From contig PQXB01000001.1 in NCBI GenBank assembly GCA_003194425.1, positions 263,522 to 327,521 on the forward strand: DNA of 64,000 nt. Reading direction: 5' to 3'. The DNA is from Candidatus Methanophagaceae archaeon (GTDB taxonomy: Archaea > Halobacteriota > Syntropharchaeia > Alkanophagales > Methanospirareceae). The stretch's first letter is position 1, and every line of letters starts with the position of its first letter. The position numbers and the translations under genes are program-made. The notes under the pieces were generated by a model. It did no database searches. It was not told where the DNA came from and was given only the letters and a program-made list of their open reading frames with translations. Of the stretch, positions 3,066-19,889 are shown piece by piece.

Positions 3066-3089
3066 AATTAGGAGGTGAAAACAAAAAAA
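3066..3089 (+). promoter_or_regulatory. Conserved leader / Shine-Dalgarno element ATTAGGAGGTGAAAAC upstream of ATG
   Basis: Near-identical motif also precedes starts at 17473, 19890, 50921(-) and, as GGGGGTGA, 62916(-); complementary to the CCUCC 3' end of 16S rRNA. Confidence 0.5.
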
Positions 3090-3710
3090 ATGAAAACGAA
3101 GATTGGCAAAAAAAGTATAGGAATATTGATTGCAGCGATAATAGTTACTTCAGTCTTTGCAGCGATTGCGCCGACAATTGGTCAGGAAGGAGATGATGGG
3201 ATAGTAGAACCGGAATGGGCACCACCAGCACCGTGGGGACCGGGCTTAAATATTACAATAGCGACACCACCAGAAGATTCCTGCGTGCACGATACGATAA
3301 ACCTTACGTGGCTAAAGAATGGCACGACTACCCCGGCAGTTTTAAAGGATTATCTGTATGTAGCGCTCGTTGACTGTGGGTCGCCGTATTGTATGCACAC
3401 AATAGAAGAGAAAGTCTGCCTGCATGGTTGTACCTACTATGAGGTAGATCTCACAGATAATGATTGGCAGAAACACATAGACCAGTGCGAGGAGTTCTGT
3501 ATATATGTCTGGAATTCTTCTACCAGATTCGGACTACCTGACACCTCATACTTTAGGAACGGGACTACGCTTAGATATGACAAAGTAGAGCCGTGCATAG
3601 AAGCGGTCGATCCAATAGATGGCAGATGGGTTAACTGCACAGCGGATCTTGAGTTGAACGTTTCGGCATGTGACTGGAGTCATAATTCCGCAGTGGGAAT
3701 AGTAAAGTAA
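3090..3710 (+). CDS. Secreted cysteine-rich hypothetical protein
   Basis: ATG at 3090 sits 8 nt after AGGAGGTGA (ORF track starts at in-frame GTG 3075); N-terminal MKTKIGKK + hydrophobic signal peptide; many Cys. Confidence 0.5.
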   Translation: MKTKIGKKSIGILIAAIIVTSVFAAIAPTIGQEGDDGIVEPEWAPPAPWGPGLNITIATPPEDSCVHDTINLTWLKNGTTTPAVLKDYLYVALVDCGSPYCMHTIEEKVCLHGCTYYEVDLTDNDWQKHIDQCEEFCIYVWNSSTRFGLPDTSYFRNGTTLRYDKVEPCIEAVDPIDGRWVNCTADLELNVSACDWSHNSAVGIVK

Positions 3711-3799
3711 AGGAGAACAGAAAAAAAAGGACCATAAAAAATTTGGATAGAAGAGGAACAAAAACCTCTTCTATTTTTTTATTTTTTTTGAACGGAAAA

Positions 3800-4912
3800 A
3801 TGAAATCTGTTAGTGTTATTGCGATGATAATTTTTGCACTCGCCGTGGCAGTGGAAGTGGCAGCAGCAATTCCGCCCTCTCCAAAATACGAAGTATATCG
3901 CGGCGATGTCTTCGTTAACGGAACGCTTGCGCCAGACGGGACGAGAGTGTCAGTAAAAGTAGGTGCGCTCGACGAAGTGGAAGACAGCACAGAAAATGGA
4001 ACATATTGGATAGCAATTAAATCCTCGCAAGCGAGCCAAGGAGACATGGTAACGCTTAAAATATACGATGCAGTCGTGGAGACTGCCAAAATTGATAAAA
4101 ACGACTACATCTCTCAAAATTACATAAATTTATACCTTGAGGATTATTTAGTAAACGAATCCGCACAACCGGACGCTCTGCCCGAAACGACAACCGAGAG
4201 CAGGATATTAGTAAATTGGGCATTTTATTCCGGCTACGACTCAACAGGGGTGAAATGCTACGAGTTGTTAAGGAGATACGAAGATGAGAAAACATTTTCC
4301 TCGCTCGTTAAGACAAATAATACACGCTATTTTGACATTCTAAACGCTACTGGCGAATATTGCTACAGGCTCGTAACCTACGACTTCGTCGGCAACTCCA
4401 AAAATTCTACGCAGGATGTCTGCACAACCTTCGTCTCCAACAAGACCTTCACACTCAACGGCTTCGTGAAATACGAAAACGGGACAGGAGTCAGCAACGC
4501 AAACGTTACCCTTGAAAAATACTTCAATCCTGTAAATTCAACCACCACGACCGAGAAAGGCTACTACGAACTCGCAGCCTCTTGGAAGAGGTACAATTTA
4601 ACCGCGGCGAAAGGAGATGTTTTGGTCTGGGGGAGGGAAGGGAAAGGAGGAGCAAAGTACATTTCCTTCCTTAACAGTTCCGCCGTCGTAAATTTAGACG
4701 CAAACAAGACCGTGAATCTTACTTTGGTAGTGAAAGGGGATTTGGACGGGGACTGCGCGGTGGGAATTGCGGATGTTCGTGTGGTCGCGAGAATGCTAGT
4801 TGGAAGCGTCTCGGAAGACTTGAAAGCGGACTTTAACGGGAACGGTTGCGTGGATTTAGGGGACGCTGCGAAGTTGCTCGGGTTTGTTAAAGGTGGAGTG
4901 AGTAAGTTATAA
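3800..4912 (+). CDS. Secreted protein with C-terminal type-I dockerin-like domain
   Basis: Signal peptide MKSVSVIAMIIFALAVA; C-terminus GDLDGDCAVGIADVRVVARMLVG ... ADFNGNGCVDLGDAAKLLGFV matches the duplicated Ca-binding dockerin segment; ORF track starts at TTG 3743, ATG 3800 preferred. Confidence 0.65.
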   Translation: MKSVSVIAMIIFALAVAVEVAAAIPPSPKYEVYRGDVFVNGTLAPDGTRVSVKVGALDEVEDSTENGTYWIAIKSSQASQGDMVTLKIYDAVVETAKIDKNDYISQNYINLYLEDYLVNESAQPDALPETTTESRILVNWAFYSGYDSTGVKCYELLRRYEDEKTFSSLVKTNNTRYFDILNATGEYCYRLVTYDFVGNSKNSTQDVCTTFVSNKTFTLNGFVKYENGTGVSNANVTLEKYFNPVNSTTTTEKGYYELAASWKRYNLTAAKGDVLVWGREGKGGAKYISFLNSSAVVNLDANKTVNLTLVVKGDLDGDCAVGIADVRVVARMLVGSVSEDLKADFNGNGCVDLGDAAKLLGFVKGGVSKL

Positions 4913-4984
4913 GAGGTGAGTAAGTTATAAGAAACGAAATAAAAAGAATAAGAAGAATAAAGAATAGGAGAAGCACGAGAAAAA

Positions 4985-5422
4985 ATGGGGAAGAAGAAAA
5001 GAGCAAAAGTAAGAATAGGAATGCTAGTAGTAGCGGTAAGTGTAGTAGCGTTGTTTTCGGCATCGGCATTCGCACAGCCGCCGGGTCTGCCATTTGGAAA
5101 CGAGACGACAAACGAAACGGGATTGCCACCCATTCCAATTCCGCCGACACAGCCTCCTGAAAATGCGCCTCTTCCGTCGCCTTCGGTAACCGCAACACTG
5201 CCTGTCTCTGCACCTGCCACTCCAACTGCACCACCAACTGCACCACCAACTGCACCTCCAACTGCACCAACTACTCCTACCGTGACGGTAACAGCAGTAA
5301 CACCAAAACCGCAAGCCGAGACGCCAGGTTTTAGCGTTTCGGCGGTTGTTACAGCAGTGCTTGGTCTTGGGTTTGTGTTAGTGGGGCTTAAAAGGACGGG
5401 GCAAAGAAAGAAGAGCAAATAA
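4985..5422 (+). CDS. Small secreted Pro/Thr-rich protein with PGF-CTERM-like sorting signal
   Basis: Signal peptide, (PTAP)n linker, then PGF (5325..5333) + hydrophobic helix + KRTGQRKKSK tail. Confidence 0.6.
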   Translation: MGKKKRAKVRIGMLVVAVSVVALFSASAFAQPPGLPFGNETTNETGLPPIPIPPTQPPENAPLPSPSVTATLPVSAPATPTAPPTAPPTAPPTAPTTPTVTVTAVTPKPQAETPGFSVSAVVTAVLGLGFVLVGLKRTGQRKKSK

Positions 5423-7870
5423 ATGGAAAGGATAATTGGAATAGCAATTTTCGTTTTGCTAGTCGCAGGGGTAGGGGCAGCGAGCGCCGACACCTTCGTG
5501 CCAGGCGAGGTGATTGTTGGTTTCGAGCGGGCAACAGGAGTGCAGGCACAGGAATCGCTGATAAAAAGCTGCGGCGGGGCAGTAACAGACAGAGACACCA
5601 CGCTTGGCTGGGTGTTAGCGAAGGTAGAAGAGGGGAAAGAGCAGGAATTTATCGCGAACATTTCGGGAGAGCGGGGCGTGAGGTACGCGGAGCGGAACGG
5701 AGTTGTAAGAGCGCTTTACGTTCCTAACGACCCAAAATGGAGTGAGCAGTGGGGACTGGAGAGAATAAACGCGGACGACGCTTGGAAGGTCGAGAAAGGC
5801 AGCACGAGCGTTAAAATCGCGATCGTGGACACAGGCGTAGACTACAACCACGAAGACTTAAACGCGAACTACTTTAGCGGGGGCTACGACTGGGTTAACA
5901 ATGACAGCGACCCTTGGGACGACTCGGTAGGGCAGTACCACGGACACGGCACACACTGCGCTGGGATTGCAGCCGCGGAGATGGATAATTCTGCAGGAAT
6001 CGCCGGCGTCGCGCAAGTCGGAATTCTGGCTGAAAAAGTTATTAACGAGACTGGCTACGGCTCTTACTCGGACTTGGCTAGCGGAATTCAGCACGCCGCA
6101 GCGCAGGGTGCAAAAATAATAAGCCTGAGCGTTGGCGGGAGTTCGGCTTCGCCCACTCTAAAAAATGCCTGCAAGTACGCCTGGGACAAGGGCTGCCTCC
6201 TCGTTGCCGCTGCCGGGAACGACGACACAACCGAAGTCTGCTACCCTGCACGCTACGAGACTGTAGTCGCGGTCGGCGCGATAAATGAGGTGGGCGTTAA
6301 GTCGATTTACAGCAACTACGGACCTGATGTTGAGCTGGCAGCACCCGGCGACGACATTCTCTCGACCCTTCCGAACAACACTTACACCCGCAAATTTGGG
6401 ACTTCGGCGGCTACTCCTTTTGTCGCCGGTGTTGCAGGGTTAGTTTGGTCGCGGAGTCCCGAGCTGACGAACGAGGAGGTGCGGGAGCGGTTGCACAGGG
6501 TCAGCACAGACTACGACTGGGTTGAGTACGGTTTGGTGGACGCAGCGAGGGCGCTCTCCACAGCCGCGGGGTCAGACTACGCACGGGCGGGCTCGCTGAT
6601 TGTAACGATTGGAAAAAACGCAACGACGCAGGTTAGCGTCGGGAACGCGAAAAATATTACCGGCGTCTCGTTGAACCTTGAGTACGACGCCTCTAAACTC
6701 TCGGTTCAAAAAATAGCCGCGAACGAGACGACAAACCAATCTTCAAACGGCTCCTGCTACTGCTACAGCAACACAACCTCCGCAGGAGTCGCAAGAATCG
6801 TTTTCCTCACCGCAGAACCGCTCAACTCAACAACAAGCGAGACCCCGATTCTTGACATTGAATTCAAGGCAGTAGGGGGCGCAGACACTCGCTCTTACTT
6901 GAATTTGAGTAGCGTCGAGTTTGCGAACGCGGGCTACCTGCCTTTCGCACCTTCAAAAGTCTTCAACGGCACGGTAGAGGTGAAGTCCTCCCTTTACGGC
7001 GTGAACCTAACCGTAGAAGGAACGAAGTGTGCGTGGAATTTCACTGAGCCGAACGAGAACGCAACTTTCCTCCTTGCACTGCGCAACACGGGCGTCGTTG
7101 CTGACAACTACACGCTTGAGGTTGAGAGCCCAGAGGGGGCGGAGGTCGCTGCGTTGAACTCAACAGAAATAACAAACCTCGCACCAGAGGCGACCGCAAA
7201 AGTCCTGCTTCAAGTAACCTCCGCAGACGAGGGTACTTACACTGTAAATGTAACCGCGACCTCAGAATGCGACCTGGACATTTACGACCAAGTCACGACG
7301 AGGACGCTCGTAGCCACGAGATATAATTTGCAAACAAGCCTGCTCGAAGGCTGGAACCTGTTCGGAGTGCCGCTAAATGTGAGTGTCGAGGTCGGTGGCA
7401 GTGGCTGGAGTTTGCCCGCGGTCTTGGCTTCAATCGAGGGAAAATACGACTACCTCTCCTACTACAACACGAGCACTGGGAGAACAGATTTCTACGACCC
7501 GCTCAACACCGAATTCTCGACGCTAAAGACCCTGAAACCCGGAGCAGGCTACCTCGTCCACCTAACTGAAGAGGCACCTGTCTCGCTCGAGTTTGAGGGT
7601 GTGAAGTTAAGGGGGTTGGAAGTGCCGTTGGAGAGAGGTTGGAATATGTTCTCGGTTCCGTACGGCGTAGCGGATAAAACGCTACCCGCGGTTCTGAAAT
7701 CAATCGAGGGAAACTACGACTACATTTACTACTACAACGCGACCACAGGGGAAATGGACTACTACGACCCGCTTAATCCCGAACTTTCAACGCTGAAAAT
7801 TTTAGAACCCGGAGCTGGGTATTTAATACACATAATTAACAAAGTAACATATTTTCCGGCAATTAAATAA
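5423..7870 (+). CDS. Secreted subtilisin-like serine protease (S8) with internal cohesin-like domain and C-terminal tandem modules
   Basis: Catalytic triad motifs DTGVDYNHEDL, HGTHCAGIAAA, GTSAATPFVAG; cohesin-like segment ~6590..6990 (LEYDASKLSV, ARIVFLTAE, FNGTVEV); two ~75-aa C-terminal repeats. Confidence 0.85.
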   Translation: MERIIGIAIFVLLVAGVGAASADTFVPGEVIVGFERATGVQAQESLIKSCGGAVTDRDTTLGWVLAKVEEGKEQEFIANISGERGVRYAERNGVVRALYVPNDPKWSEQWGLERINADDAWKVEKGSTSVKIAIVDTGVDYNHEDLNANYFSGGYDWVNNDSDPWDDSVGQYHGHGTHCAGIAAAEMDNSAGIAGVAQVGILAEKVINETGYGSYSDLASGIQHAAAQGAKIISLSVGGSSASPTLKNACKYAWDKGCLLVAAAGNDDTTEVCYPARYETVVAVGAINEVGVKSIYSNYGPDVELAAPGDDILSTLPNNTYTRKFGTSAATPFVAGVAGLVWSRSPELTNEEVRERLHRVSTDYDWVEYGLVDAARALSTAAGSDYARAGSLIVTIGKNATTQVSVGNAKNITGVSLNLEYDASKLSVQKIAANETTNQSSNGSCYCYSNTTSAGVARIVFLTAEPLNSTTSETPILDIEFKAVGGADTRSYLNLSSVEFANAGYLPFAPSKVFNGTVEVKSSLYGVNLTVEGTKCAWNFTEPNENATFLLALRNTGVVADNYTLEVESPEGAEVAALNSTEITNLAPEATAKVLLQVTSADEGTYTVNVTATSECDLDIYDQVTTRTLVATRYNLQTSLLEGWNLFGVPLNVSVEVGGSGWSLPAVLASIEGKYDYLSYYNTSTGRTDFYDPLNTEFSTLKTLKPGAGYLVHLTEEAPVSLEFEGVKLRGLEVPLERGWNMFSVPYGVADKTLPAVLKSIEGNYDYIYYYNATTGEMDYYDPLNPELSTLKILEPGAGYLIHIINKVTYFPAIK

Positions 7871-7886
7871 AATAGGAGACAGAGAA

Positions 7887-10800
7887 ATGGGAGAAAAGGG
7901 AAGGAAGAGAGAGGGGGGAAAGTGGAAGAAGAGACGACTGATTGGAGTAGCGGCGGTGGGGGCGATATTAGTGACGACTTTTGCTTCGCAGGCTGTGTGC
8001 GCATCGGTGCCGTTGTTTAATGAGGCAATACTTAGAGGGTATGTTTTCGATACGCAGGGAAATCCAATACAAAGGGCATTAATTGAATGGCGAGATAGCG
8101 AGACTATGGAACTATTTGAACTTACAACCACAACCTACACAGGATATTATTCCACGCCACACTTGTTCAACGACGCGGGCGCCGTAAGATCCTTGATAAC
8201 CGCCGCAAAGACAGACTTCTCTACTAACTCAACAATAATAACGACCGAGCCTGCTTTTCCGCCTACATTTTACGAACTGAATTTTACATTGCTTGAAATA
8301 GCGGAAACAGGCAGCATAAACATAAACGAGATAATGTACAATCCAAGCACGGAGCAAGGAAGCGACACCGTGCTGGAGTGGATTGAACTGCGCAACGACG
8401 ACACAGCAGCAGTGAACCTAAACGGCTGGACGATTGCGACACCCGAAGTAGGAAAAATAACAGAAGAAATAATTCTGCAGCCGGGAGGTTACGCAGTGCT
8501 TGCGAGGAACAAGGACGCGTTTGAGGCCTACTACGGTGCCGGTGGCGAGTTGTCGTGCTCGGTGGTAGAAGTGGAAATGAGACTTGGAAATGCAGAGGAC
8601 ACGGTAGTCTTGAAAGACGGTGCAGGAACAGAAATCGACCGGGTGTCCTACAAGGACGACTGGGGTGCGGACGGTAACGGGAAAACACTGGAACTAATTG
8701 GAGCAGGCGGGGGCTGGCGAGAGAGCGTAGCAGACGACGGAACGCCTTGTGCAGAGAACAGCGTAGTTTTTATGAAGCCCGACCTGACGGTTACCGTTTC
8801 AGACGGCTCGCTTAACTGCGGCTTCCTCTTCGGGAACGAGAGCAACGAGGTCTGCGTAACTGTCGAGAACATCGGCACTGACAGGACAGACGCGTTCAAC
8901 CTCTCCTTCGATATGAACGGCTTCAGCACAGAAGAGCGAGTGGCTGGCGGGTTAGTGGCTGGCGGGAATGCAACAACGGTCTGCGTCGCCGACCCGACGC
9001 TGCGAAGTGCGGGCGATTCGGTGACCGTTCGCGTCGTCGCAGACTGCAACGGCGAAATTACTGAGTCGAACGAGACGAACAACGCAGCCAGCCTCACAAC
9101 AACAGTCGTGAACAACGGCTACAAAGGAAAACGATACACCGGCGGCGAGGACATCGCCAGTTGGAAGAAATTTGAACTCAACGGCGACCTGCTCTACTCT
9201 GTCGGCGACAGTTTCTATCTGAGTGCTTACACCTACAAGCACTGGACGGAGTACGCTGCAAACTGGACTGTGAGCGACCTGCAAGTTCCTGATACTGAAA
9301 CTGCGACCGTTAGAGAGGCGAGGTTGTACGTGCCTTACACCTGGGACAAGGCAGGTGTGATGCCCGACGAGGTGAGCCTGACCTTCAACGGCGTGACTCA
9401 AACGTTGGACGCACACTACACGGATGAGAAAATGCACGCTACCAGCTACCCCTACGGAATGCTGGTATACAATGTAACCGAAGATTTGGATACAAGCGCA
9501 AGCGGCAACACCGCAGTACTCACTAACTCTCACCTCGGTGGCGGAAATGTGTCAATTCGCGGAATGCTTCTCACGGTGATTTACGCAGACGAGAGCGAGC
9601 CACTGCGTGAGATATTTGTTAACGAGGAGTTTGACCTGCTCTACGGCGGGGCGTCAAAATGCACGACGCCCGAGGAGGCGACCGCTTACGCTCCTTTCGG
9701 AACTGCTGACACTGAAGATGTTCTTTCTGCCACGCTGGTAACAGTCGCTCCTGGTGCAGGACCGAGTGAGGGGGAGCTGACCTTTAACGGGCAGAAATGG
9801 ACGGACGTGTGGAGTTTTGCAGGCGCTACGCAAATAGGAATAGACAAGCGAGAAGTAACTTCGTTCTTGCAGGCGGCCGAGAACGAAGCGGGGTTCCAAA
9901 GCAGCGCCGACTACTTTGAACCGAGCAACGCAATTCTCGTTGTAGAACACATTGAGCGGGTAAACCTAAACATAAACGAGATAATGTACAATCCAAGCAA
10001 GGAGCAAGGAAGCGACACCGTGCTGGAGTGGCTTGAACTGCGCAACGACGACACAGCAGCAGTGAACCTAAACGGCTGGACGATTGCGACACCCGAAGTA
10101 GGAAAAATAACAGAAGAAATAATTCTGCAGCCTGGAGGTTACGCAGTGCTTGCGAGGAACAAGGACGCGTTTGAAAATTACTACGGTGCCGGTGGCGAGT
10201 TGTCGTGCTCGGTGGTAGAAGTGGAAATGAGACTTGGAAATGCAGAGGACACGGTAGTCTTGAAAGACGGTGCAGGAACAGAGATCGACCGGGTGTCCTA
10301 CAAGGACGACTGGGGTGCGGACGGTAACGGGAAAACACTGGAATGGAATGCGACAGGCTGGTTTGAGAGCGAAGTAGAGGGCGGAACGCCTTGTGCAGAG
10401 AACAGCGTAGTTTTTATGAAGCCCGACCTGACGGTTACCGTTTCAGACGGCTCGCTTAACTGCGGCTTCCTCTTCGGGAACGAGAGCAACGAGGTCTGCG
10501 TAACTGTCGAGAACATCGGCACTGACAGGACAGACGCGTTCAACCTCTCCTTCGATATGAACGGCTTCAGCACAGAAGAGCGAGTGGCTGGCGGGTTAGT
10601 GGCTGGCGGGAATGCAACAACGGTCTGCGTCGCCGACCCGACGCTGCGAAGTGCGGGCGATTCGGTGACCGTTCGCGTCGTCGCAGACTGCAACGGCGAA
10701 ATTACTGAGTCGAACGAGACGAACAACGCAGCCAGCCTCACAACAACAGTCGTGAACAACGGCTACAAAGGAAAACGATACACCGGCGGCGAGGACATCG

Positions 10801-13436
10801 CCAGTTGGAAGAAGTTTGAACTCAAAGGCAACTTGCTCTACTCGGTCGGCGACAGTTTTTACCTGAGTTCCTCCACGCAGAAGCACTGGGCGACCTACAC
10901 TGCCAACTGGACTACAGGAGACCTACCAGTTCCCGAGACTGCGACTGTTAGAGAGGCGAGGTTGTACGTGCCTTACACCTGGGACAAGGCAGGTGTGATG
11001 CCCGACGAGGTGAGCCTGACCTTCAACGGCGTTGCTCAAACACTGGATGCACACTACACAGACAGGAAAGGCTACGGCTCCTACGACTACCCTTACGGAG
11101 CGCTGGCTTACAATGTAACCTCGGGTTTTGACCTTGACGTAAGGAACACCGCAGTGCTAACGAACACACACCCCGGCGGTGGAAATGTGTCAATTCGCGG
11201 AATGCTTCTCACGGTGATTTACGCAGACGAGAGCGAGCCACTGCGGGAGATATTTGTTAACGAGGAGTTTGACCTGCTCTACGGCGGGGCGTCAAAATGC
11301 ACGACGCCCGAGGAGGCGACCGCTTACGCTCCTTTCGGAACTGCTAACACTGAAGATGTTTTCTCTGCCACGCTGATAACAGTCGCTCCTGGTGCAGGAC
11401 CGAGTGAGGGGGAGCTGACCTTCAACGGGCAGAAATGGACGGACGTGTGGAGTTTTGCAGGCGCTACGCAAATAGGAATAGATAAGCGAGAAGTAACTGC
11501 GTTCTTGCAGGCGGCCGAGAACGAAGCGGGGTTCCAAAGCAGCGCCGACTACTTTGAACCGAGCAACGCATTCCTCGTTGTAGAACACAAGAGGCCAGAC
11601 CTTGTCGTCAGAGGGATTAAAATAAACCCCAACGGCACTCGCGGCGAAGAGATTGTTAGGGTTTATGTAAATGAGAGCAACAACCTCACTGCAGTCGTGC
11701 AGAACAACGGAAATGCCGACGCAGGAGCGTTTGAGGTCTGCTTCGAGGTGGGTTCAGGCGTTGAGGTCGGCTGCGTAAACGTGGCTGGACTGCCTGCTGG
11801 GGCTAACGCAACGGTCAGCACCTTTTGGACGCCGTGTTGCGAAAACTACTCGGTTGAGCCCGGTTTCCCGGCACGCTCGCTTCCCACAACTGTAAATGTA
11901 ACTGCGGACTGCACTGAAAAAATACCCGAGTCAGACGAGGCGAACAACCTGCTCTCGAAGTTTATTCCCGCTGTTCAGCAGTACGCGGGCTACGATGTTT
12001 TAGGCGGGGTCGTTAACAACGGCTACAAGAGCAAGAACTTCGACTGCAACGCCACTGAAGAGCCGCTGACACTCTTCGAGCACGAGGAGGAGTTGCTCGG
12101 CGGCGGTCTCGCGTTAAATGTAAGCGGTGCGAAAATCAGTTCCTTCGATCCCGGCGAGACCAGCACAAGAACCCACCACATTGAAATTCCTGAAGGTGCA
12201 ACCGTGAAAACCGCGAGGCTCTACGTCTACTGGTACGACAAATGGGGTAACTACAAGCAGTACCCAACTGGGTGCTTGGCGGACCTCAGCGTGAATTTTG
12301 GTGGCACCGAGTTCGCACCCGCAAAGAAATACAACGACCAGAAGGGCTTCGGCTACTACCACAGCCCGAAAGGAACTTACACCTACAACGTGACCTCAAA
12401 GGTGCGAGAAGCCGGGTCTGGCGACTACACCGCAGTCGTCAAGAACACCGACCCCAAGAACAGCACGACCCTACTCGGCGAAATGCTACTCGTCGTCTAC
12501 GACGACCCAGCGAAGACAAACCTCACGCAAATTTGGGTGCTTGAGGGCAACGACTACTTAATGTCCGCAGACGAGACGCACAACAGCTACAACTACGGCG
12601 TCTCGCCAGAAGAGGCGACTGCAACCGTGAAATTACCCGGAAACCTCTCGACAGCGGCAGCGAATCTCAGTTCCGTCTGCTCTGCAACGCTAATTTCGGT
12701 CGTCGCGCAGGGAATGTCGCCTGGAGCAAACCTACTCTTCAACGGCGAAGTCGTTAAGACAGACGCTTGGAACACGGAGACCGAAGCCTACCCAAACAGC
12801 AAAATTAATTTGGAGTCGTTAGATGTGAAGCCCTACCTGACCTTAACCGCTTCAGGCAACAGAGGAAACAGCGTTGGCTTCCAAGACACTGGCACCGACG
12901 GTCTGCAGGCGAGCAACGCGATTCTTGTGGTGGAATATTCTGAGCAAGAGCCACTGCACCCCGCTGTTTCAATTTCCACCGACAAAACAGACTACACCCC
13001 TGGCGAGACAATGCAAATTACACTGAACTTGTCAAATCCAACGGGGACTGACCAAACGGTGTGGTTTGAGTGGTACTTTGGAATACCGGCTTACAGCTAC
13101 TGGCTGCCTTTTGTAGAGCCTTTGCCTTTAAATTTGCCCGCGGGTTGCGAGTACTCCTTCCCCTTTTCAATTTTGGTAGGCAACTGGGGCGAGACGGGAT
13201 TTGACGCAGTCTGGCTCGTGAACCTGTCAGACCCGGTAACGCACAAAATTATAAGTTCTGACACTGCCGAGTGGAGCTACGCCCCTGTTCCTCCTGCTAC
13301 TGCTGTTGCTACCGCTGCAGTTAGCAGCGAGCAAACGCGAAGCGTAGAGAACTTTGATGAGGAAATGTTAGGTTCAGGCAGAGAAATAGAAAAGAAGTTA
13401 AAGGCAAAATTAGAAAGTGAAACAGAAAAAAGATGA
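7887..13436 (+). CDS. Giant secreted protein (1849 aa): 2x [lamin-tail domain - CARDB-like - NNGY module], a third diverged module, and the shared C-terminal domain
   Basis: Signal peptide; LTD-like INEIMYNP...EWIELRN...NLNGWTI; CARDB-like ...ITESNETNN; C-terminal SISTDKTDYTPGETMQI...AEWSYA domain. Confidence 0.85.
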   Translation: MGEKGRKREGGKWKKRRLIGVAAVGAILVTTFASQAVCASVPLFNEAILRGYVFDTQGNPIQRALIEWRDSETMELFELTTTTYTGYYSTPHLFNDAGAVRSLITAAKTDFSTNSTIITTEPAFPPTFYELNFTLLEIAETGSININEIMYNPSTEQGSDTVLEWIELRNDDTAAVNLNGWTIATPEVGKITEEIILQPGGYAVLARNKDAFEAYYGAGGELSCSVVEVEMRLGNAEDTVVLKDGAGTEIDRVSYKDDWGADGNGKTLELIGAGGGWRESVADDGTPCAENSVVFMKPDLTVTVSDGSLNCGFLFGNESNEVCVTVENIGTDRTDAFNLSFDMNGFSTEERVAGGLVAGGNATTVCVADPTLRSAGDSVTVRVVADCNGEITESNETNNAASLTTTVVNNGYKGKRYTGGEDIASWKKFELNGDLLYSVGDSFYLSAYTYKHWTEYAANWTVSDLQVPDTETATVREARLYVPYTWDKAGVMPDEVSLTFNGVTQTLDAHYTDEKMHATSYPYGMLVYNVTEDLDTSASGNTAVLTNSHLGGGNVSIRGMLLTVIYADESEPLREIFVNEEFDLLYGGASKCTTPEEATAYAPFGTADTEDVLSATLVTVAPGAGPSEGELTFNGQKWTDVWSFAGATQIGIDKREVTSFLQAAENEAGFQSSADYFEPSNAILVVEHIERVNLNINEIMYNPSKEQGSDTVLEWLELRNDDTAAVNLNGWTIATPEVGKITEEIILQPGGYAVLARNKDAFENYYGAGGELSCSVVEVEMRLGNAEDTVVLKDGAGTEIDRVSYKDDWGADGNGKTLEWNATGWFESEVEGGTPCAENSVVFMKPDLTVTVSDGSLNCGFLFGNESNEVCVTVENIGTDRTDAFNLSFDMNGFSTEERVAGGLVAGGNATTVCVADPTLRSAGDSVTVRVVADCNGEITESNETNNAASLTTTVVNNGYKGKRYTGGEDIASWKKFELKGNLLYSVGDSFYLSSSTQKHWATYTANWTTGDLPVPETATVREARLYVPYTWDKAGVMPDEVSLTFNGVAQTLDAHYTDRKGYGSYDYPYGALAYNVTSGFDLDVRNTAVLTNTHPGGGNVSIRGMLLTVIYADESEPLREIFVNEEFDLLYGGASKCTTPEEATAYAPFGTANTEDVFSATLITVAPGAGPSEGELTFNGQKWTDVWSFAGATQIGIDKREVTAFLQAAENEAGFQSSADYFEPSNAFLVVEHKRPDLVVRGIKINPNGTRGEEIVRVYVNESNNLTAVVQNNGNADAGAFEVCFEVGSGVEVGCVNVAGLPAGANATVSTFWTPCCENYSVEPGFPARSLPTTVNVTADCTEKIPESDEANNLLSKFIPAVQQYAGYDVLGGVVNNGYKSKNFDCNATEEPLTLFEHEEELLGGGLALNVSGAKISSFDPGETSTRTHHIEIPEGATVKTARLYVYWYDKWGNYKQYPTGCLADLSVNFGGTEFAPAKKYNDQKGFGYYHSPKGTYTYNVTSKVREAGSGDYTAVVKNTDPKNSTTLLGEMLLVVYDDPAKTNLTQIWVLEGNDYLMSADETHNSYNYGVSPEEATATVKLPGNLSTAAANLSSVCSATLISVVAQGMSPGANLLFNGEVVKTDAWNTETEAYPNSKINLESLDVKPYLTLTASGNRGNSVGFQDTGTDGLQASNAILVVEYSEQEPLHPAVSISTDKTDYTPGETMQITLNLSNPTGTDQTVWFEWYFGIPAYSYWLPFVEPLPLNLPAGCEYSFPFSILVGNWGETGFDAVWLVNLSDPVTHKIISSDTAEWSYAPVPPATAVATAAVSSEQTRSVENFDEEMLGSGREIEKKLKAKLESETEKR
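8317..9952 (+). repeat. Intragenic tandem duplication, copy 1 (~1.64 kb)
   Basis: By eye about 95-97% identical to 9967..11592; mirrored by duplicated antisense shadow ORFs in the ORF track. Confidence 0.9.
9967..11592 (+). repeat. Intragenic tandem duplication, copy 2 (~1.63 kb)
   Basis: Direct repeat of 8317..9952 with a few substitutions and short indel blocks. Confidence 0.9.
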
Positions 13437-14986
13437 AAAGGAGGATTAAAATTTGCGGTGCGACGCTGCTGTTGGTCTTGGTAGTTTCGGCGTTTGCAGT
13501 GCCAAGCGGAGTGGCCGGAGTGGCAGCCCTTGAGAGACCGACTTACGGCGTTGAACTGACCGTAGACGGCGGCAACAAGACTGCGAACCAGTCCGTGCGG
13601 CTTGGTGAGAACGCGACCTACAACCTGAGCCTTACGAACGCAGGAAATGCCACAGACCGCTACACGCTGAACTTTTCGAACCCGAACAACGCGACAACCT
13701 GCGGGCTGCTGCTCGGTGCGGCGAGTCTCAAAAAGAACCTAACGACAGCAGTCTTGGTGCCCGGAGAGAGAGCGAATTTAACGCTCGTCGTCGGAAACTC
13801 GACCGAAGGAGTGTTCAAAGTGAACGTAACCGCTACCTCTGTGAACGACCCTGCAAATGCAACCGTTAACACAACGACTACGGTTGGGACAGCACCAACG
13901 AGCCCTTCACTCGTCTCCTACACCATTTCCAACCGCACAATAACGCCACCCCAAACCACAGAAATAGATGTTAGATTCTCGGAGCAGGTGGAAGCGTGGA
14001 TAAAAATCGAAGATTCCGAGAGAAATTTGGTGAACGAGTTGTACCACAGCCCTGCCGTGACCAACCCAAAACCTAAAATCTGGGACGCAACCTTCACAAA
14101 CGGAACACTCGTTGGAGACGGCGACTATTTTGTAAATGTTACTGGGACCTGCGCATGCAGCAGCATAGAATGCACCGTAACGAACGACACCGAAATTATC
14201 ACCGTTACCCTCCCGCCAGACACCGACACCACGCCACCCGCGGTAACAGACCCAACTGCAACGCCCGAGACGATTCTTGCCGACGGAGTCCAAACCTCGC
14301 TCTTGAGTGTGACTGTCAAAGATGAGACCGCGGTTGACACTGTCGTAGTGAACCTCTCGCAAATCGGCGGGTCGCCAGCACAGGTCTTGGAACTCATCAA
14401 CAGCACGCTCTTTCTCTACGGCACGACGACAAACGCGTCGGTGGGAACGCCACCCGGAACCTACAACCTAACAGTCTCTGCAACTGACATTTACGGGAAC
14501 TCTAACGCGTCGGTGAGCTTTCGGCTGACCGTTACCGAACCAAGACTCGCTGTTTCAATTTCCACCGACAAAACAGACTACGCCCCTGGCGAGACAATGC
14601 AAATCCAACTGAACTTGTCAAATCCCACGCCCGCCGACCAAATGCTGCTGTTTGCGTGGTACTTTGCGATCCCTGACTACAGCTACCAGACCGCCGTCGT
14701 AGCACCTACGCTTGTTATTTTACCAGCGGGCTGCGACTTTTCCTTCCTCCTTCCAATGCCTGTGGGCGACTGGGGTGCGACAGATTTCAACGCTACTTGG
14801 TCTGTTGAACTGCTCAACCCGCTGACCTACAGCGTCGTAGACGACGACACTGCCGAGTGGCGTTACACGGCTGTGCGTGCGGCGGCAGGAGCGGAAATTG
14901 CAGGAGAAGAGGCGGCAGCAGCAGAGAAAATCGGTGCGGAAATAAAGAGAGAGCTAAACAAAGAGGGAGGGGTGCTACCTTTTTAA
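13433..14986 (+). CDS. Secreted protein with Ig-like (CARDB/NEW3-type) region and the shared C-terminal domain
   Basis: Signal peptide MKRRIKICGATLLLVLVVSAFA; C-terminal SISTDKTDYAPGETMQIQLNLSNPT...AEWRYTA then charged tail; start overlaps stop of the upstream gene (ATGA). Confidence 0.8.
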   Translation: MKRRIKICGATLLLVLVVSAFAVPSGVAGVAALERPTYGVELTVDGGNKTANQSVRLGENATYNLSLTNAGNATDRYTLNFSNPNNATTCGLLLGAASLKKNLTTAVLVPGERANLTLVVGNSTEGVFKVNVTATSVNDPANATVNTTTTVGTAPTSPSLVSYTISNRTITPPQTTEIDVRFSEQVEAWIKIEDSERNLVNELYHSPAVTNPKPKIWDATFTNGTLVGDGDYFVNVTGTCACSSIECTVTNDTEIITVTLPPDTDTTPPAVTDPTATPETILADGVQTSLLSVTVKDETAVDTVVVNLSQIGGSPAQVLELINSTLFLYGTTTNASVGTPPGTYNLTVSATDIYGNSNASVSFRLTVTEPRLAVSISTDKTDYAPGETMQIQLNLSNPTPADQMLLFAWYFAIPDYSYQTAVVAPTLVILPAGCDFSFLLPMPVGDWGATDFNATWSVELLNPLTYSVVDDDTAEWRYTAVRAAAGAEIAGEEAAAAEKIGAEIKRELNKEGGVLPF

Positions 14987-15009
14987 CCTCCTCTTTTTTC
15001 TTTATTTTT

Positions 15010-16401
15010 ATGACACGGAAAAGAAGCGGAAGTGCAGTTCTTCTCGTCACAGCACTCCTTATTTTCGCTTTTATTTCTCTAACTTTAATTCTAACTCTAA
15101 CTCCCAGCGTTAGCGCTGCGGAAAGTCTAACTCCCAGCGTTAGCGCTGCGGAAAGCGCTGCGGAAAGCGAGACCGAAAATAAATTTTGCATCACGAAAAT
15201 CAGCCCCAGGAATATACAGCCCGCAGACATTTCCACAGTGAGCGTAACGATAAAAAATATCGGCTCGCATTCCGCATTTCACGTCGCGACCGAGGTTGAG
15301 ACGGCTAAGATGCTTGCGGGCGAGACGGGCGAAACGGGTGAGACAACGCCTGTAAAGGTCGTAGGAAGGGCGAAGAAGAGCGTAGGGACGACTTCTCTGA
15401 ACTCGCTTGGTTGCGACCGAGAAGCAACAGTCAAGTACGACTTTTATGTCGAGAAGGACGCAGAAGCGAGCACCTACAACATTCCGCTGAAAGTTCTCTG
15501 GCGGGAGAAGCCCGAGGAGGTGGGGAGAGAGGGGTGGAGAGGAAGAGAAGGAGAAGAGAACGAGGTGCGAAGCGAGACATTGTATTTTGGGGTCAGAGTG
15601 CTTGGGCAGTCGAGAGCGGCGGAAATTGATGTTGTCAATGTTACAACCGCTCCTGCTGGTGCAGGAATTAAGCCTGGCGCGGAGGCGACCCTAAAAATCA
15701 AACTCAAAAATATCGGCGGTTTGACGGTTAGCAGGCTTAAGGTAAGGCTGACTGCAGAAGAGCCGTTCACACCGCTTGATTCCGACTTAGAGCAGTACCT
15801 AACAGACCTAAAGCCAAACGAGACGAGGACAGCGTATTTTAATCTCTCGGTGGACAGAGAAGCCGCGAGTTCGTGCTACGAACTACCGCTCGTCTTGGAG
15901 TACGAGGACGAGTTCGGCAGTCACGAAAAGAACACCTCGGTCGGCGTTTCCGTGAAAGGCAGCCCGAGAGTTCTTATTCAGGAAATTATTCTCGAGCCCA
16001 GCAAATTGAGTAGTGGCACCGAAGGGCTGCTTATGATTCGGCTGATAAACACAGGCACGGAGAGTGCAGAGGACACGAAAATAAGAATCGCAGGAGCAGA
16101 AGGGATTTTAACCGAAGGGCACCAGTTCATCGGCGAAATCGCACCCGACGAATCGGAAACCGCAACCTTCGGCGTCTCGGTTGCTGAAGAAGAAGTTGAG
16201 ACAGGAAAACACGGTCTGACGATAAAAATCGCCTACGAGGACGAGTTCGGAACGAGCTGCCCTGCAAACTCCAAAATCTACGAAATAACCGTCTTTGAGT
16301 CCGAGCCGTTCTTGCCGACGAAATATGTTTACGCTTTGGCGGGCGTTGCAGCGGCGGCGGTGGTAGGTTACCTTTTACTAGTAGTGAGGCTCAAAAAATG
16401 A
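15010..16401 (+). CDS. Cell-surface protein with N-terminal signal peptide and C-terminal transmembrane anchor
   Basis: ATG 15010 preferred over ORF-track start 14857 (which overlaps the upstream gene); C-terminus YALAGVAAAAVVGYLLLVVRLKK; short tandem repeats near N-terminus. Confidence 0.65.
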   Translation: MTRKRSGSAVLLVTALLIFAFISLTLILTLTPSVSAAESLTPSVSAAESAAESETENKFCITKISPRNIQPADISTVSVTIKNIGSHSAFHVATEVETAKMLAGETGETGETTPVKVVGRAKKSVGTTSLNSLGCDREATVKYDFYVEKDAEASTYNIPLKVLWREKPEEVGREGWRGREGEENEVRSETLYFGVRVLGQSRAAEIDVVNVTTAPAGAGIKPGAEATLKIKLKNIGGLTVSRLKVRLTAEEPFTPLDSDLEQYLTDLKPNETRTAYFNLSVDREAASSCYELPLVLEYEDEFGSHEKNTSVGVSVKGSPRVLIQEIILEPSKLSSGTEGLLMIRLINTGTESAEDTKIRIAGAEGILTEGHQFIGEIAPDESETATFGVSVAEEEVETGKHGLTIKIAYEDEFGTSCPANSKIYEITVFESEPFLPTKYVYALAGVAAAAVVGYLLLVVRLKK

Positions 16402-17255
16402 GGAGAACGCAAAAAAAAGGAACGGGGAGACAGGTTTTTTTGTTGGTTTTGTTTCTGTGCTATTTTCTGCTCTTGACTCCTTACATTGTGCACACGAACC
16501 TGAACGAAGTTGGAGGAGGGGTTGTCGAGGACTTGAAGACCGTCCCAGTTCCGTCTCTTCCTGCAGACATTCAGGACCTTGTCTTTGACTTTGGCGGGGA
16601 CGAAAGCGACTGCACGGTTCTTTTGCTGGAAAACAGCGTCTCGGGCGAGAGAACAGCCGTTGTAACCGTCCAAGACTGCGAAATCCAAAAGGGCGCGGTG
16701 GTGAAGGTTACAGACAAAATAATCGAGTGGTTCGTGGACTGGCACGCCTACCAGTCCTGCAGCGGCTTTGACTTTGGCGAGAAGTTTGGAGTCCTTGTTG
16801 TCGGCGAGGTCGCAGAGGTTAGTGCAGCAGAGTCGGGCGTTGAAAAGGTTCTTTCCTCCCGCCCCCTCGGCAGTCCCCTCTTCACGCTTTCAAAGGCGTC
16901 TTTTCTCTTTGCTCCGCTGCTGCTCGTAGTTTGCCTTAGTCTCGGCACCAGAAACCGCTTTTACCTCTGGAACTTCGCTGCGGTCTTGGCTCTCTACTCT
17001 TTTGAAGTCTTTCTGCTCAACACCGCAGGGAGCGTGCTGCACGAGGTTGCGCTAGCGGGAGCAAGAGCTGGGGTAGGGGCAGAGGGAGGAGGAGTGGGTG
17101 CAGCAGAGGGTTGGAAATATTTTGGCTACTTGTTTGTGCTGTTAGTCCCCTTCACCGTTCTTTTCGCACGCTACGAGGAGAGCGAAGAGGGGCAGAGGAG
17201 ACTAAAAAAGTTTTACGCGGGGCTGCTTGAGTTAGTTGATCGTTTGTTTCAGTGA
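16398..17255 (+). CDS. Hypothetical membrane protein
   Basis: ATG overlaps stop of the upstream gene (translational coupling); several hydrophobic segments. Confidence 0.5.
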   Translation: MRRTQKKGTGRQVFLLVLFLCYFLLLTPYIVHTNLNEVGGGVVEDLKTVPVPSLPADIQDLVFDFGGDESDCTVLLLENSVSGERTAVVTVQDCEIQKGAVVKVTDKIIEWFVDWHAYQSCSGFDFGEKFGVLVVGEVAEVSAAESGVEKVLSSRPLGSPLFTLSKASFLFAPLLLVVCLSLGTRNRFYLWNFAAVLALYSFEVFLLNTAGSVLHEVALAGARAGVGAEGGGVGAAEGWKYFGYLFVLLVPFTVLFARYEESEEGQRRLKKFYAGLLELVDRLFQ

Positions 17256-17472
17256 AACTACTTAAAGACGTAAAAGAAACTTTTAATGAAGGAGAAAAAG
17301 CAGAGAAAGAAAAATGTCAGGCTCGTCTGTTTCAAGTTGGATGAGAGCGTCTGGGGGGAACGCCGTGGGAAAAATAGAAATAAGAGAGGAAAACCGAAGC
17401 GGAGAGGAAAGACGCTTTACAAGTAAAAACCCTCTAAAGTCAAAAAAAAATTAGGAGGTGAAAAAAGAAAAA

Positions 17473-19188
17473 ATGAAAACCAAAAGACTACTAAGCCTTT
17501 TAATAGTTTTTACAGTGGTGCTGAGTGTAAGCGTGAGTGCAGGAACGGTCTCGGCAGCGACGCCGAACGACGGGCCAGGTTCGAGCACGAGCAGCGGTGC
17601 GTTTTCTGGAGCAGAGGTGTTGGGTTTGCCGAGGAGTTTCACGCTCGAGGACAGCTTTGGCTACACTTGGGATTTGGACATCGTTTTTGGATGCGTGCTG
17701 TACGGCACAAAGACCTCGAGCATTGGGACCTACCCAGCGTACGGGTACGTATTCGGGAACGAGATGGTTCTGTGGGCTGACAACCCCGGTTCTCCCTACT
17801 CGGACAGCTTTGCCTACACCGGAATGTGGAACTACAAAACAATGAAATTCGACGGAAAATGGGTCGGCTACCCAAAAGGGTCAGGCAATGTCTCAATGTG
17901 GTTTGCTAAGAGTGCGGTAGGCGAAGGAGAAGAAAAGACCTGGACGAGCGAGAATGTAGAAGAAGGACCTGACGCGGCGGCAAGTGCAGGCACAGAGACA
18001 GCGGTTGCACAACAAGCGGTTGCACAACAAAACCTCGATGCTGCGCCGAGCACTGAAGGTAGCGCTAGTGCTAGTGCGACATTCTTGATTGACGGAGAGA
18101 ACGCGGAAGAAGAGATTAGCGGTCTGTTTAGTCGCGGTGCGATTTGCCTCGAAGACAGCTTTAGCTACACCTGGGATTTGGACATCCTCTACGGCTGCAT
18201 CTTGTACGGCACAAAGACCTCGGGTATTGGAACTCATCCCGCGTACGGCTTCGTATTCGGCGACGAAATGTTCCTCTGGGCTGACAATCCTGGTGGGGAA
18301 TATTCAGACAGCTTCGTCTACACCGGGAAGTGGAACGCCGCGGTAACGCTCTTCAACGGAACCTGGATTAACTATCCGATGGGGTCTTCAGGCACGGTCG
18401 AAGTGTGGCCCTGCGGTGGTGGACCAACTGAGACAGAGTACTACGCCGTAATCGCGGGCGAGGGTTACGGTTGTAGTTACGCCGACAGCGACGCCTACGA
18501 TATGTACGGACTTCTTACGAGCGAGTTCAACAACAACTGGAAGAAGGAGAACGTCAGGCTGTTAGTGAGCACCGCGGACGGGACGAAACACGACTGCACA
18601 CGGACAAAGATTCGGAACGGGATTTCGTGGATGGCGAGCGAAGCGGACGAGGACGATGTTAGCCTCTTCTTCTACGCGGGGCACGGCGGTTACCAGACGG
18701 ATGTGACACCACTCGACGAAAGCGACGGCAACGACGAATACATTTGCCCCGAGGGCGGGAACATTCTTGACGACGAACTCAACAACTGGTTGTCTGCGGT
18801 GCCTGGGTACAAGCTGGTCGCACTCGACTCCTGCTTCAGCGGCGGGTTCATTAAAGCCGACGGAGCAGAGGTTAGGAGCGTGCCGGGACTGCCGAGAATT
18901 GACCGAACCGACGGTTTCAGAGAAGACCTCTGCAAGAAGGGGTTCAACGTGCACACCGCCTGCGACGAGGACGAGAGTGCCTACGGCTACGCAGCACTGA
19001 ACAACGGCGTCTTCACTTACTACCTCGTGCAGGGTCTTTACGGACCCGCAGACTCGGACAGCGACGGAGACATAGACTCGTTTGAAGCACACACCTACAC
19101 AAGACCAAAAGTAATTTCGTACACTGGCGGCGACCAGAACCCCTGGCGCTGCGCTGGCACAACTGACCCGCTGATTTGGGTGCTGTAA
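17473..19188 (+). CDS. Secreted caspase-domain (C14 / metacaspase-like, clan CD) cysteine peptidase with two N-terminal tandem domains
   Basis: ATG 17473 after AGGAGGTGA; signal peptide; His motif FYAGHGG and Cys motif LDSCFSGG; ~100-aa domain repeated twice (FTLEDSFGYTWDLDI... / ICLEDSFSYTWDLDI...). Confidence 0.7.
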   Translation: MKTKRLLSLLIVFTVVLSVSVSAGTVSAATPNDGPGSSTSSGAFSGAEVLGLPRSFTLEDSFGYTWDLDIVFGCVLYGTKTSSIGTYPAYGYVFGNEMVLWADNPGSPYSDSFAYTGMWNYKTMKFDGKWVGYPKGSGNVSMWFAKSAVGEGEEKTWTSENVEEGPDAAASAGTETAVAQQAVAQQNLDAAPSTEGSASASATFLIDGENAEEEISGLFSRGAICLEDSFSYTWDLDILYGCILYGTKTSGIGTHPAYGFVFGDEMFLWADNPGGEYSDSFVYTGKWNAAVTLFNGTWINYPMGSSGTVEVWPCGGGPTETEYYAVIAGEGYGCSYADSDAYDMYGLLTSEFNNNWKKENVRLLVSTADGTKHDCTRTKIRNGISWMASEADEDDVSLFFYAGHGGYQTDVTPLDESDGNDEYICPEGGNILDDELNNWLSAVPGYKLVALDSCFSGGFIKADGAEVRSVPGLPRIDRTDGFREDLCKKGFNVHTACDEDESAYGYAALNNGVFTYYLVQGLYGPADSDSDGDIDSFEAHTYTRPKVISYTGGDQNPWRCAGTTDPLIWVL

Positions 19189-19239
19189 GGCAAGAGAGTA
19201 GAACAGCAGAGAAGAGTAGAAAGGACTGTAAAAAAGAAG

Positions 19240-19290
19240 CCCGGCGTTTTTAGTTTTACTGCGCCGCGCCGGGTGGTTATTTTTTTTTGT
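19240..19290. terminator. Hairpin plus T-tract between convergent genes
   Basis: CCCGGCG...CGCCGGG inverted repeat followed by an oligo-T run. Confidence 0.35.
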
Positions 19291-19783
19291 ATTTTTGGTT
19301 TTTGTATTTTTGGTATTTTTGGATTAGAATTATTGCCGCGGTTAGGGCAGCAACTGACAAAACCGAGATTAAAACGACCTTTTTAAACTTTGTTTTAGAC
19401 TCTTCCGACGGCGGTGAGGGAATTGGGTAGGCTACTTCTACTCCCTCTGCTCCTCCTGCTCCTCTCGGGACGGCGCTGGACAAAATGCGCCCGCTCTCTT
19501 TAGCTACCCAGACTCGCACGTTCGGGTACTGCAGCCCCCGCTCCAACTGCTCGTTCGTCCACCAGTCAACCGCCCAGCAGGGAGTTGAGTTGAAGGACTC
19601 TTCGGAGACGACCGAGAAGGCGTCGGGGTGCTTTGAGAGGAGGGCAGCAGCCTCGGCAGTACTCTTCGAAATCTCCTCTGCTTCGCTCTCGGTTACCGCT
19701 GCAGCCGAGACAACTGCAACAGCGGTCGCCGCTAAGAAAATAAGGGCGAGGCACAAGACTATTTTCTCTCTTCTTTTCGGCAT
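19277..19783 (-). CDS. Hypothetical small membrane-anchored protein
   Basis: N-terminal and C-terminal hydrophobic segments, lysine-rich tail KYQKYKNQKYKKK; sits between two protease genes. Confidence 0.5.
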   Translation of the reverse strand: MPKRREKIVLCLALIFLAATAVAVVSAAAVTESEAEEISKSTAEAAALLSKHPDAFSVVSEESFNSTPCWAVDWWTNEQLERGLQYPNVRVWVAKESGRILSSAVPRGAGGAEGVEVAYPIPSPPSEESKTKFKKVVLISVLSVAALTAAIILIQKYQKYKNQKYKKK

Positions 19784-19889
19784 AATTTTTGTAACCCTTT
19801 TTATAAAGAAGGTTCTTGCTTAAAAATATAGTTAAAGCAAAAGGCAAAACAAAAGGCAAAATAAATGCATTAGGAGGTGAAAACCAAAA

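Follow-up and report, generated by a model that had tools for sequence, protein, structure and literature searches.

A mosaic tandem duplication of an LTD-CARDB-DUF3344 cassette in a putatively secreted ANME-1 protein, probably old and homogenised by intragenic gene conversion

Does a pair of near-identical tandem copies inside one archaeal gene record a recent duplication, an older one whose copies have been kept alike, or an error of assembly? The gene that raises this question lies in the window, the 64-kb stretch of DNA analysed here, and its 1849-aa product is 100% identical to NCBI "hypothetical protein C4B55_01430" (P0001 in our family survey) from a 1.19-Mb contig of a Candidatus Methanophagaceae (ANME-1) MAG. 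The plus strand is established as coding by Pfam matches at E 1e-177. Antisense open reading frames at 8284-8688, 8648-9115, 9826-10338 and 10298-10759 were considered and set aside; they are mirror images that arise from the duplication and are without gene support.

Comparison of the gene with itself by blastn gave only one off-diagonal match, which pairs 8317-9951 with 9967-11589 head-to-tail (E = 0) and defines copies A and B; their alignment of 1641 columns contains 89 mismatches and 14 gap openings and has a nucleotide identity of 93.1%. When the protein was cut into segments and these were compared pairwise, the copies were 88.9% identical over 558 columns. The repeats found from exact seeds start 1650, 1644 and 1638 nt from their counterparts; each distance is a multiple of 3, so the indels between A and B are in frame. 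The resemblance is far beyond chance, and the repeat unit has no further counterpart in the 64-kb window. That a three-domain cassette of 1.65 kb is duplicated in tandem and in frame (Table 1) is thus confirmed by the blastn self-match, the repeat spacings and the protein comparison, much as a preliminary description of the locus had claimed with copy coordinates correct to within 1-3 nt. The identity of 95-97% that it estimated by eye suits most of the unit, which is 97-100% identical, but not the unit as a whole, which includes three patches of only ~54-80%.

Table 1. Features of C4B55_01430 and of its tandem repeat; nucleotide positions are those of the window, and dS and dN are between copies A and B.
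Feature	Residues (aa)	Position (nt)	Strand	Basis or remark
Gene for 1849-aa multidomain protein, putatively secreted (NCBI C4B55_01430)		7887..13436	+	ORF list, translation, Pfam matches
Putative signal peptide: basic stretch and hydrophobic segment (aa 18-36), ending ...VCA/S		7887..8009	+	hydropathy scan
N-terminal domain	41-143			
Repeat copy A		8317..9951	+	blastn self-match, exact-seed repeats
LTD-A	144-270	8316-8696	+	
CARDB-A	297-405	8775-9101	+	
DUF3344-A	406-690	9102-9956	+	
Junction linker TTGAGCGGGTAAACC, copy A to copy B, outside the shared repeat		9952..9966	+	15 nt; also in L010
Repeat copy B		9967..11589	+	blastn self-match, exact-seed repeats
LTD-B	694-820	9966-10346	+	
CARDB-B	845-953	10419-10745	+	
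DUF3344-B	954-1236	10746-11594	+	
Third, old module: CARDB-C (aa 1251-1359) and DUF3344-C (aa 1374-1686)		11637..12944	+	
C-terminal module of ~135-150 aa	1668-1839	12888..13403	+	protein comparison; also DNA repeat
LTD core	144-269			dS 0.048
Divergent patch 1, loop at LTD end	270-284	8694..8738	+	54% nt identity, 2-codon indel, dS 1.15
Linker, CARDB and DUF3344 start	285-430			dS 0.01, one difference in 438 nt
Identical tract: linker, CARDB, DUF3344 start (NNGY motif)		8738..9169	+	432 nt, 100% identical to copy B 10382-10813
Divergent patch 2, DUF3344 loops	431-470	9177..9296	+	77.5% nt identity to 10821-10940, dS 0.61, dN 0.20
DUF3344 core	471-503			dS 0.14, dN 0
Divergent patch 3, DUF3344 loops	504-551	9396..9539	+	~71% nt identity to ~11035-11176, dS 0.82, dN 0.28
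DUF3344 C-half	552-688			dS 0.065

Each copy was described as one lamin-tail domain (LTD), one CARDB-like domain and one "NNGY module", and Pfam bears this out, the last of the three being DUF3344 (PF11824). The protein belongs to all three families: DUF3344 scores 586.7 bits in three stretches (E 9e-177, profile coverage 2-275 of 275, gathering score 27.2 bits), CARDB (PF07705) 142.4 bits in three stretches (gathering score 22.7 bits), here in agreement with an Ig-like beta-sandwich fold, and LTD (PF00932) 123.9 bits in two stretches, the best at aa 140-256 (gathering score 34.3 bits). CARDB stands immediately N-terminal to DUF3344 in all three modules. The third module (aa 1251-1686), correctly noted before as a diverged one that follows the repeat, is a CARDB-DUF3344 pair that lacks an LTD and shares 30-32% amino-acid identity with copies A and B. 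By hydropathy scan and sequence, the N-terminus appears to be signal-peptide-like, and the C-terminus carries no hydrophobic anchor in the same kind of scan. No dockerin or cohesin match was found in the protein by Pfam search, and it is accordingly not classed as a cellulosome-like component; NCBIfam gave no match above threshold.

The setting of these domains was surveyed in 66 DUF3344 proteins with 120 modules. CARDB directly precedes DUF3344 in nearly all of the 66 homologues, which have 1-3 modules per protein, and CARDB-DUF3344 homologues occur in Methanophagales, Methanomicrobiales, Methanocellales and Methanosarcinales; a HMMER search for DUF3344 at E <= 1e-3 picked out 557 of 1.84 billion cluster representatives, in which the domain matched up to 7 stretches per protein. 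The likeness of C4B55_01430 is to the DUF3344/CARDB "cell surface proteins" of methanogens and ANME, such as those of Methanosarcina (P0065), Methanophagales (P0009/P0010) and ORF68/70 of Methanoperedens plasmids (PMC9674854). It differs from them in three respects. The repeated unit contains an LTD, which among the 66 surveyed proteins is otherwise found only in P0039; PKD, beta-helix, dockerin and cohesin domains, present in many of the relatives (many of those from Methanophagales have dockerin or cohesin, PF00404 or PF00963), are missing; and its modules A and B are ~90% identical, whereas most within-protein pairs of the relatives are 29-65% identical. There are closer pairs, at 94% in P0021, 100% in P0055 and 75% in P0003; P0014 combines nearly identical CARDB parts with diverged DUF3344 parts, and the modules of P0003 differ in the same DUF3344 loops as the copies of C4B55_01430. 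Since other proteins thus possess near-identical, patchily differing modules, module duplication with partial homogenisation is recurrent in the family.

The preliminary description had also called LTDs uncommon in archaea, which is at most weakly true: LTD relatives are present in Methanophagales, Methanobacteriota, Woesearchaeota, Nanoarchaeota and other euryarchaeal MAGs, and LTDs have been described in haloarchaeal proteins (PMC5118699). Several LTD copies within one protein are likewise a known case (P0067-P0085), and an LTD gene comes after a CARDB-DUF3344 gene on one metagenome contig (L013). What appears unusual, judged from the sequences compared, is an LTD within a DUF3344 protein and not an LTD in an archaeon. 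Other prokaryotic proteins with an LTD, such as the Shewanella nuclease ExeM (PMC6085458) and the haloarchaeal ComA-like Hlac_1867 and Hvo_1477 (PMC5118699), resemble C4B55_01430 in that a Pfam LTD above threshold sits in a putatively secreted or envelope protein; C4B55_01430, unlike them, is without nuclease, metallo-beta-lactamase or phosphoesterase and pairs its LTD with CARDB-DUF3344.

Codon alignment of the two copies with Nei-Gojobori estimates of dS and dN divides the unit into nearly identical stretches and three divergent patches (Table 1). The longest identical run, of 432 nt, was reached by none of 20,000 permutations of all sites (P < 5e-5), and the same test confined to synonymous codons gave P = 5e-5. 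Codons with synonymous differences make up 22 of 88 inside the patches and 8 of 389 outside them (Fisher P = 1e-11). Long identical and diverged tracts thus alternate to a degree that is significant at synonymous sites as well, and because the heterogeneity holds there, the mosaic reflects different histories along the repeat and not just protein constraint. The 432-nt tract is putatively the most recent conversion tract. In the patches dN/dS is ~0.3, which provides no evidence for positive or diversifying selection on the loops. A target of a diversity-generating retroelement (VR/TR) was considered too and rejected: the 110 A/B mismatches are spread evenly over the nucleotides A, C, G and T in both copies, 65 of them are transitions, and indels occur as well, with no adenine bias.

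A related genome, of the kind proposed earlier for a comparison of copy number, is available in part as contig Ga0190347_1001569 (L010; 6170 bp), which was found by a metagenome scan, aligns to window positions 4122-10328 at 96.3% and spans the junction from A to B. The contig is ~3.7% different overall, and the neighbouring subtilase gene is 98.5% identical (dS 0.038); since the differences run throughout and the subtilase dS is of this size, L010 represents a different though related strain, assembled separately. Its reading frame, open to the contig end, is ordered N-terminal part, LTD, CARDB, DUF3344, LTD, and it comprises a complete copy A, the same 15-nt linker and, of a second LTD, 353 nt that include a copy-B-specific residue. 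The outcome speaks against an artefact: because L010 has the same A-to-B junction, the duplication is not a product of the MAG and predates the split of the two strains. In the three patches copy A of L010 is 97-100% identical to copy A of the window and 72-86% to copy B (99% and ~86% in patch 1), and as it matches window copy A there, the patches are stable and copy-specific and are not evolving fast now.

L010 ends ~353-360 nt into copy B, inside the LTD and in a stretch that is nearly identical to copy A. A contig end inside a near-identical repeat is the typical position of a repeat-induced break in short-read assembly, and the earlier suspicion that the repeat is an assembly hazard is borne out in this sense. 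Copy-number variation was not seen in the two informative genomes, both of which have the A-to-B arrangement, L010 with at least two cassettes before the contig ends. In the genome and metagenome collections no relative other than L010 was more than 70% identical, and contigs of species-representative genomes contained only distant LTD or DUF3344 relatives.

How the copies came to be alike can be read from the part of copy B that the second strain provides. In a four-sequence alignment of the LTDs (A and B of the window and of L010), the copies within a genome are placed together by nine sites and a 9-nt indel, the orthologues by only one site. The dS of the LTDs is 0.145 and 0.108 between strains, against a background of ~0.04, and 0.048 within the window; because the LTDs differ more between strains than within the window, at least one inter-copy transfer must have occurred since the strain split. 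Copies within a genome are thus more similar than orthologues, the direct evidence for concerted evolution covering the LTD region only, over the 353 nt of L010 copy B. Most of the nine sites lie inside ~130 nt and could stem from a single event or tract. The dS between copies in the patches (0.6-1.15) exceeds the between-strain background given by the subtilase more than tenfold, and because of this and of the shared junction the near-identity outside the patches is attributed to homogenisation by gene conversion and not to youth. The "recent domain-array expansion" of the preliminary description is therefore supported as an expansion but not as a recent one.

We consider it probable, at roughly 0.7, that an old duplication in the gene of a secreted CARDB-DUF3344 surface protein was followed by repeated intragenic gene conversion from which three patches escaped. 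It is proposed that the product is a large, secreted, all-beta multidomain protein built on the CARDB-DUF3344 didomain, which would be the standard block of a small archaeal surface-protein family, and that the ancestral layout was an N-terminal part, LTD-CARDB-DUF3344, CARDB-DUF3344 and a C-terminal part. A second LTD-CARDB-DUF3344 cassette of about 1650 nt would have been gained by in-frame unequal recombination or slippage before the lineage split from the L010 strain. Later intragenic gene conversion would have copied one cassette over most of the other more than once, bringing it to 97-100% identity. Three short patches would have escaped; they comprise the loop at the LTD end and, in DUF3344, four loops between strands of its N-terminal half. 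Two reasons for the escape may be envisaged: convertants may be selected against if the cassettes have distinct binding properties, or sequence divergence may itself block the extension of heteroduplexes.

The main rival to this reading, which we think unlikely, is a younger duplication whose divergent tracts were imported later, either by ectopic conversion from a DUF3344/LTD paralogue elsewhere in the genome or by homologous recombination with a diverged allele of another population. Identity changes abruptly (from 100% to 77% in about 100 nt), as expected for the ends of recombination tracts, ANME-1 genomes encode many DUF3344 proteins, and the between-strain LTD dS of 0.11-0.15 over a background of 0.04, indels included, suggests that imports do occur. 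Yet no donor was found within the 64-kb window, a collection of 5.8 billion proteins gave modules A and B no external match closer than ~68% identity, and the three patches need three imports or one import that was later partly erased by conversion.

Very unlikely, in our judgement, is a single recent duplication after which the loop residues of the patches diverged rapidly under relaxed or positive selection. A patch dS 10-100 times higher than elsewhere (0.6-1.15 against 0.01-0.065) is left unexplained by protein-level selection, and the dN/dS of the patches, their conservation in copy A between the two strains and a junction older than the strain split all tell against this account, even though the high identity of most of the unit and the position of the divergent residues, in loops that vary family-wide, are what it would predict. 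That strain variants of a locus with a single true cassette were mis-joined in tandem is barely credible, for although the source is a MAG, such repeats are hard to assemble and L010 itself breaks inside this one, a different assembly that diverges by ~3.7% has the same linker and 353 nt of the second LTD in one open frame, and all A/B indels are multiples of 3.

An old duplication with partial conversion would leave two cassettes that share a scaffold and differ in loops. An AlphaFold2 model of DUF3344 alone is an all-beta structure, a beta-sandwich, with pLDDT 89.7 and pTM 0.90, and CARDB and DUF3344 together were modelled at pLDDT 90.7, both models being built from alignments of 23-24 sequences; a sequence search of DUF3344 against the PDB gave no match at E <= 1. 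On the AlphaFold2 secondary structure the copy-specific residues map to four inter-strand loops (model residues about 155-170, 177-189, 231-237 and 246-256), which coincide with variable stretches of the family consensus. Proteins with DUF3344 on Methanoperedens plasmids are predicted extracellular surface proteins (PMC9674854), and a survey of fibrillar adhesins placed DUF3344 in its cluster 23, of ambiguous function (PMC9210967). The fibrillar adhesins and "fibrillar enzymes" of that survey (PMC9210967) resemble C4B55_01430 in its repeated Ig-like domains (LTD and CARDB) and putative signal peptide. An extracellular location is suggested by the signal-peptide-like N-terminus, by a run of nine genes whose products have the same feature and by the literature on DUF3344. 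We propose that C4B55_01430 is putatively an extracellular, multivalent binding or adhesion protein in which the homogenised scaffold and the variable DUF3344 loops may give cassettes with different binding properties.

A stronger form of this idea is speculative and, on balance, doubtful: the cassettes would be kept as a functional pair, conversion keeping the LTD, CARDB and DUF3344 scaffolds identical while selection protects copy-specific loops of DUF3344 (and of the LTD) for different ligands. In that case DUF3344 would serve methanogens and ANME as a recognition domain of lectin or adhesin type that has so far gone unnoticed on their cell surfaces, and these archaea would vary the specificity of their surfaces by duplicating cassettes and converting them in part, for instance for attachment to a consortium or matrix. 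Loops of DUF3344 that stay different between homogenised modules are at any rate candidates for a ligand-binding surface in ANME/methanogen attachment.

Concerted evolution of tandem repeats is known in microbial surface and adhesin genes, including those of staphylococcal and streptococcal proteins and of the Alp family. C4B55_01430 is like these in its long in-frame tandem repeats with mosaic identity in a gene for a putatively secreted protein and in having copies that are more alike within a genome than orthologues are between strains, and it differs in that there are only two copies, each of them a 550-aa cassette of three domains and not a short stalk repeat, and in being archaeal. Repeat expansion and concerted evolution in a surface-type protein gene are an ordinary kind of event, and DUF3344 is a known but uncharacterised small domain family, so that current understanding is unchanged. 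The locus illustrates cleanly how concerted evolution proceeds within a surface-protein gene of an archaeon, with a mosaic that recurs in other DUF3344 proteins. It is also one that breaks short-read assemblies, and annotated copy numbers in ANME-1 MAGs should be treated with caution.

The nine-gene run to which C4B55_01430 belongs is encoded on the plus strand (3075-21893), and all of its products have signal-peptide-like N-termini in the hydropathy scan. The subtilase, which lies 16 nt upstream of C4B55_01430, has a cohesin domain (E 2.4e-7), and extensive dockerin and cohesin proteins have been noted in ANME genomes (PMC9012536). The run further includes two Ig-like/CARDB proteins, one of which has a C-terminal membrane anchor, a caspase-like protein and a papain-like peptidase with a lectin domain. 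The C-terminal module of C4B55_01430 is shared with the C-terminus of the next gene's product (13433-14986, 53% identity) and recurs at 36% identity in the C-terminus of the papain-like peptidase (19890-21893).

The gene for the LTD/CARDB/DUF3344 protein (C4B55_01430; LTD, lamin-tail domain) lies in a forward-strand run of genes at 3075-21893, in which each of the nine consecutive genes has a signal-peptide-like hydrophobic segment at its start and several overlap through their start and stop codons. As a group, the nine genes make up a 'secretome/protease island'. A C-terminal module of about 135-150 aa is common to the LTD/CARDB/DUF3344 protein, the product of the next gene and the papain-like peptidase; a Pfam search of the module returned no family above threshold and a weak A2M_BRD-like match. 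It may serve all three proteins as a shared domain for attachment or association.

Genes of the forward-strand run and positions of the shared C-terminal module (window coordinates)
Feature	Position	Strand	Basis
CarboxypepD_reg protein gene	within 3075-21893	+	domain content
Subtilase S8 + cohesin gene	within 3075-21893	+	domain content
LTD/CARDB/DUF3344 protein gene	within 3075-21893	+	domain content
Two Ig-like/CARDB protein genes, one with C-terminal TM anchor	within 3075-21893	+	domain content
Small membrane protein gene	within 3075-21893	+	domain content
Caspase-like C14 gene	within 3075-21893	+	domain content
Papain C1 + lectin domain gene	within 3075-21893	+	domain content
C-terminal module, LTD/CARDB/DUF3344 protein	12888-13403	+	sequence identity
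C-terminal module, next gene	14477-14875	+	53% identity
C-terminal module, papain-like peptidase	21462-21881	+	36% identity

The product of the gene at 3743-4912 carries DFNGNGCVDLGDAAKLL in its C-terminal region, which resembles a dockerin calcium-binding repeat, and Pfam reported no dockerin for this product. Because the subtilase encoded two genes downstream carries a cohesin domain, the two proteins may constitute a docking pair.

Comparison with L010, a metagenome contig from a related but distinct strain, revealed in-frame LTD indels (L010 4167-6170 against window 8316-10328), namely one of 12 nt confined to copy A of the L010 cassette and one of 9 nt, common to both L010 copies, whose bases are absent from L010. 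Synonymous divergence between the strains is also higher in the LTD (0.11-0.15) than in flanking genes (0.04), and together with the indels this suggests faster turnover of the LTDs than of their surroundings. Upstream of the subtilase gene, window 4122-5423 is a local hot-spot of divergence between the two strains, with only 91.6% identity to L010 3-1281; the subtilase gene itself is 98.5% identical.

Among homologous DUF3344 proteins outside the window, P0055 contains two CARDB-DUF3344 modules that are 100% identical, P0021 contains a pair that is 94% identical, and P0172 (3457 aa) is matched by DUF3344 in seven stretches. Recent module amplification or homogenisation is thus recurrent in the family. 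The LTD-DUF3344 association is not limited to C4B55_01430 either, since on another metagenome contig (L013, 1423-5139) a CARDB-DUF3344 gene is immediately followed by an LTD-encoding gene.

Within the subtilase gene, towards its 3' end, lies a direct repeat (7415-7565 and 7685-7835; 74% identical, 270 nt apart) corresponding to two repeated C-terminal domains of about 90 aa. C4B55_01430 begins within a purine-rich tandem repeat (7881-7934; 25-nt unit, 2.2 copies). This repeat extends over both the start codon and the ribosome-binding region, and it codes for the lysine/arginine/glycine-rich N-terminus of the gene product.
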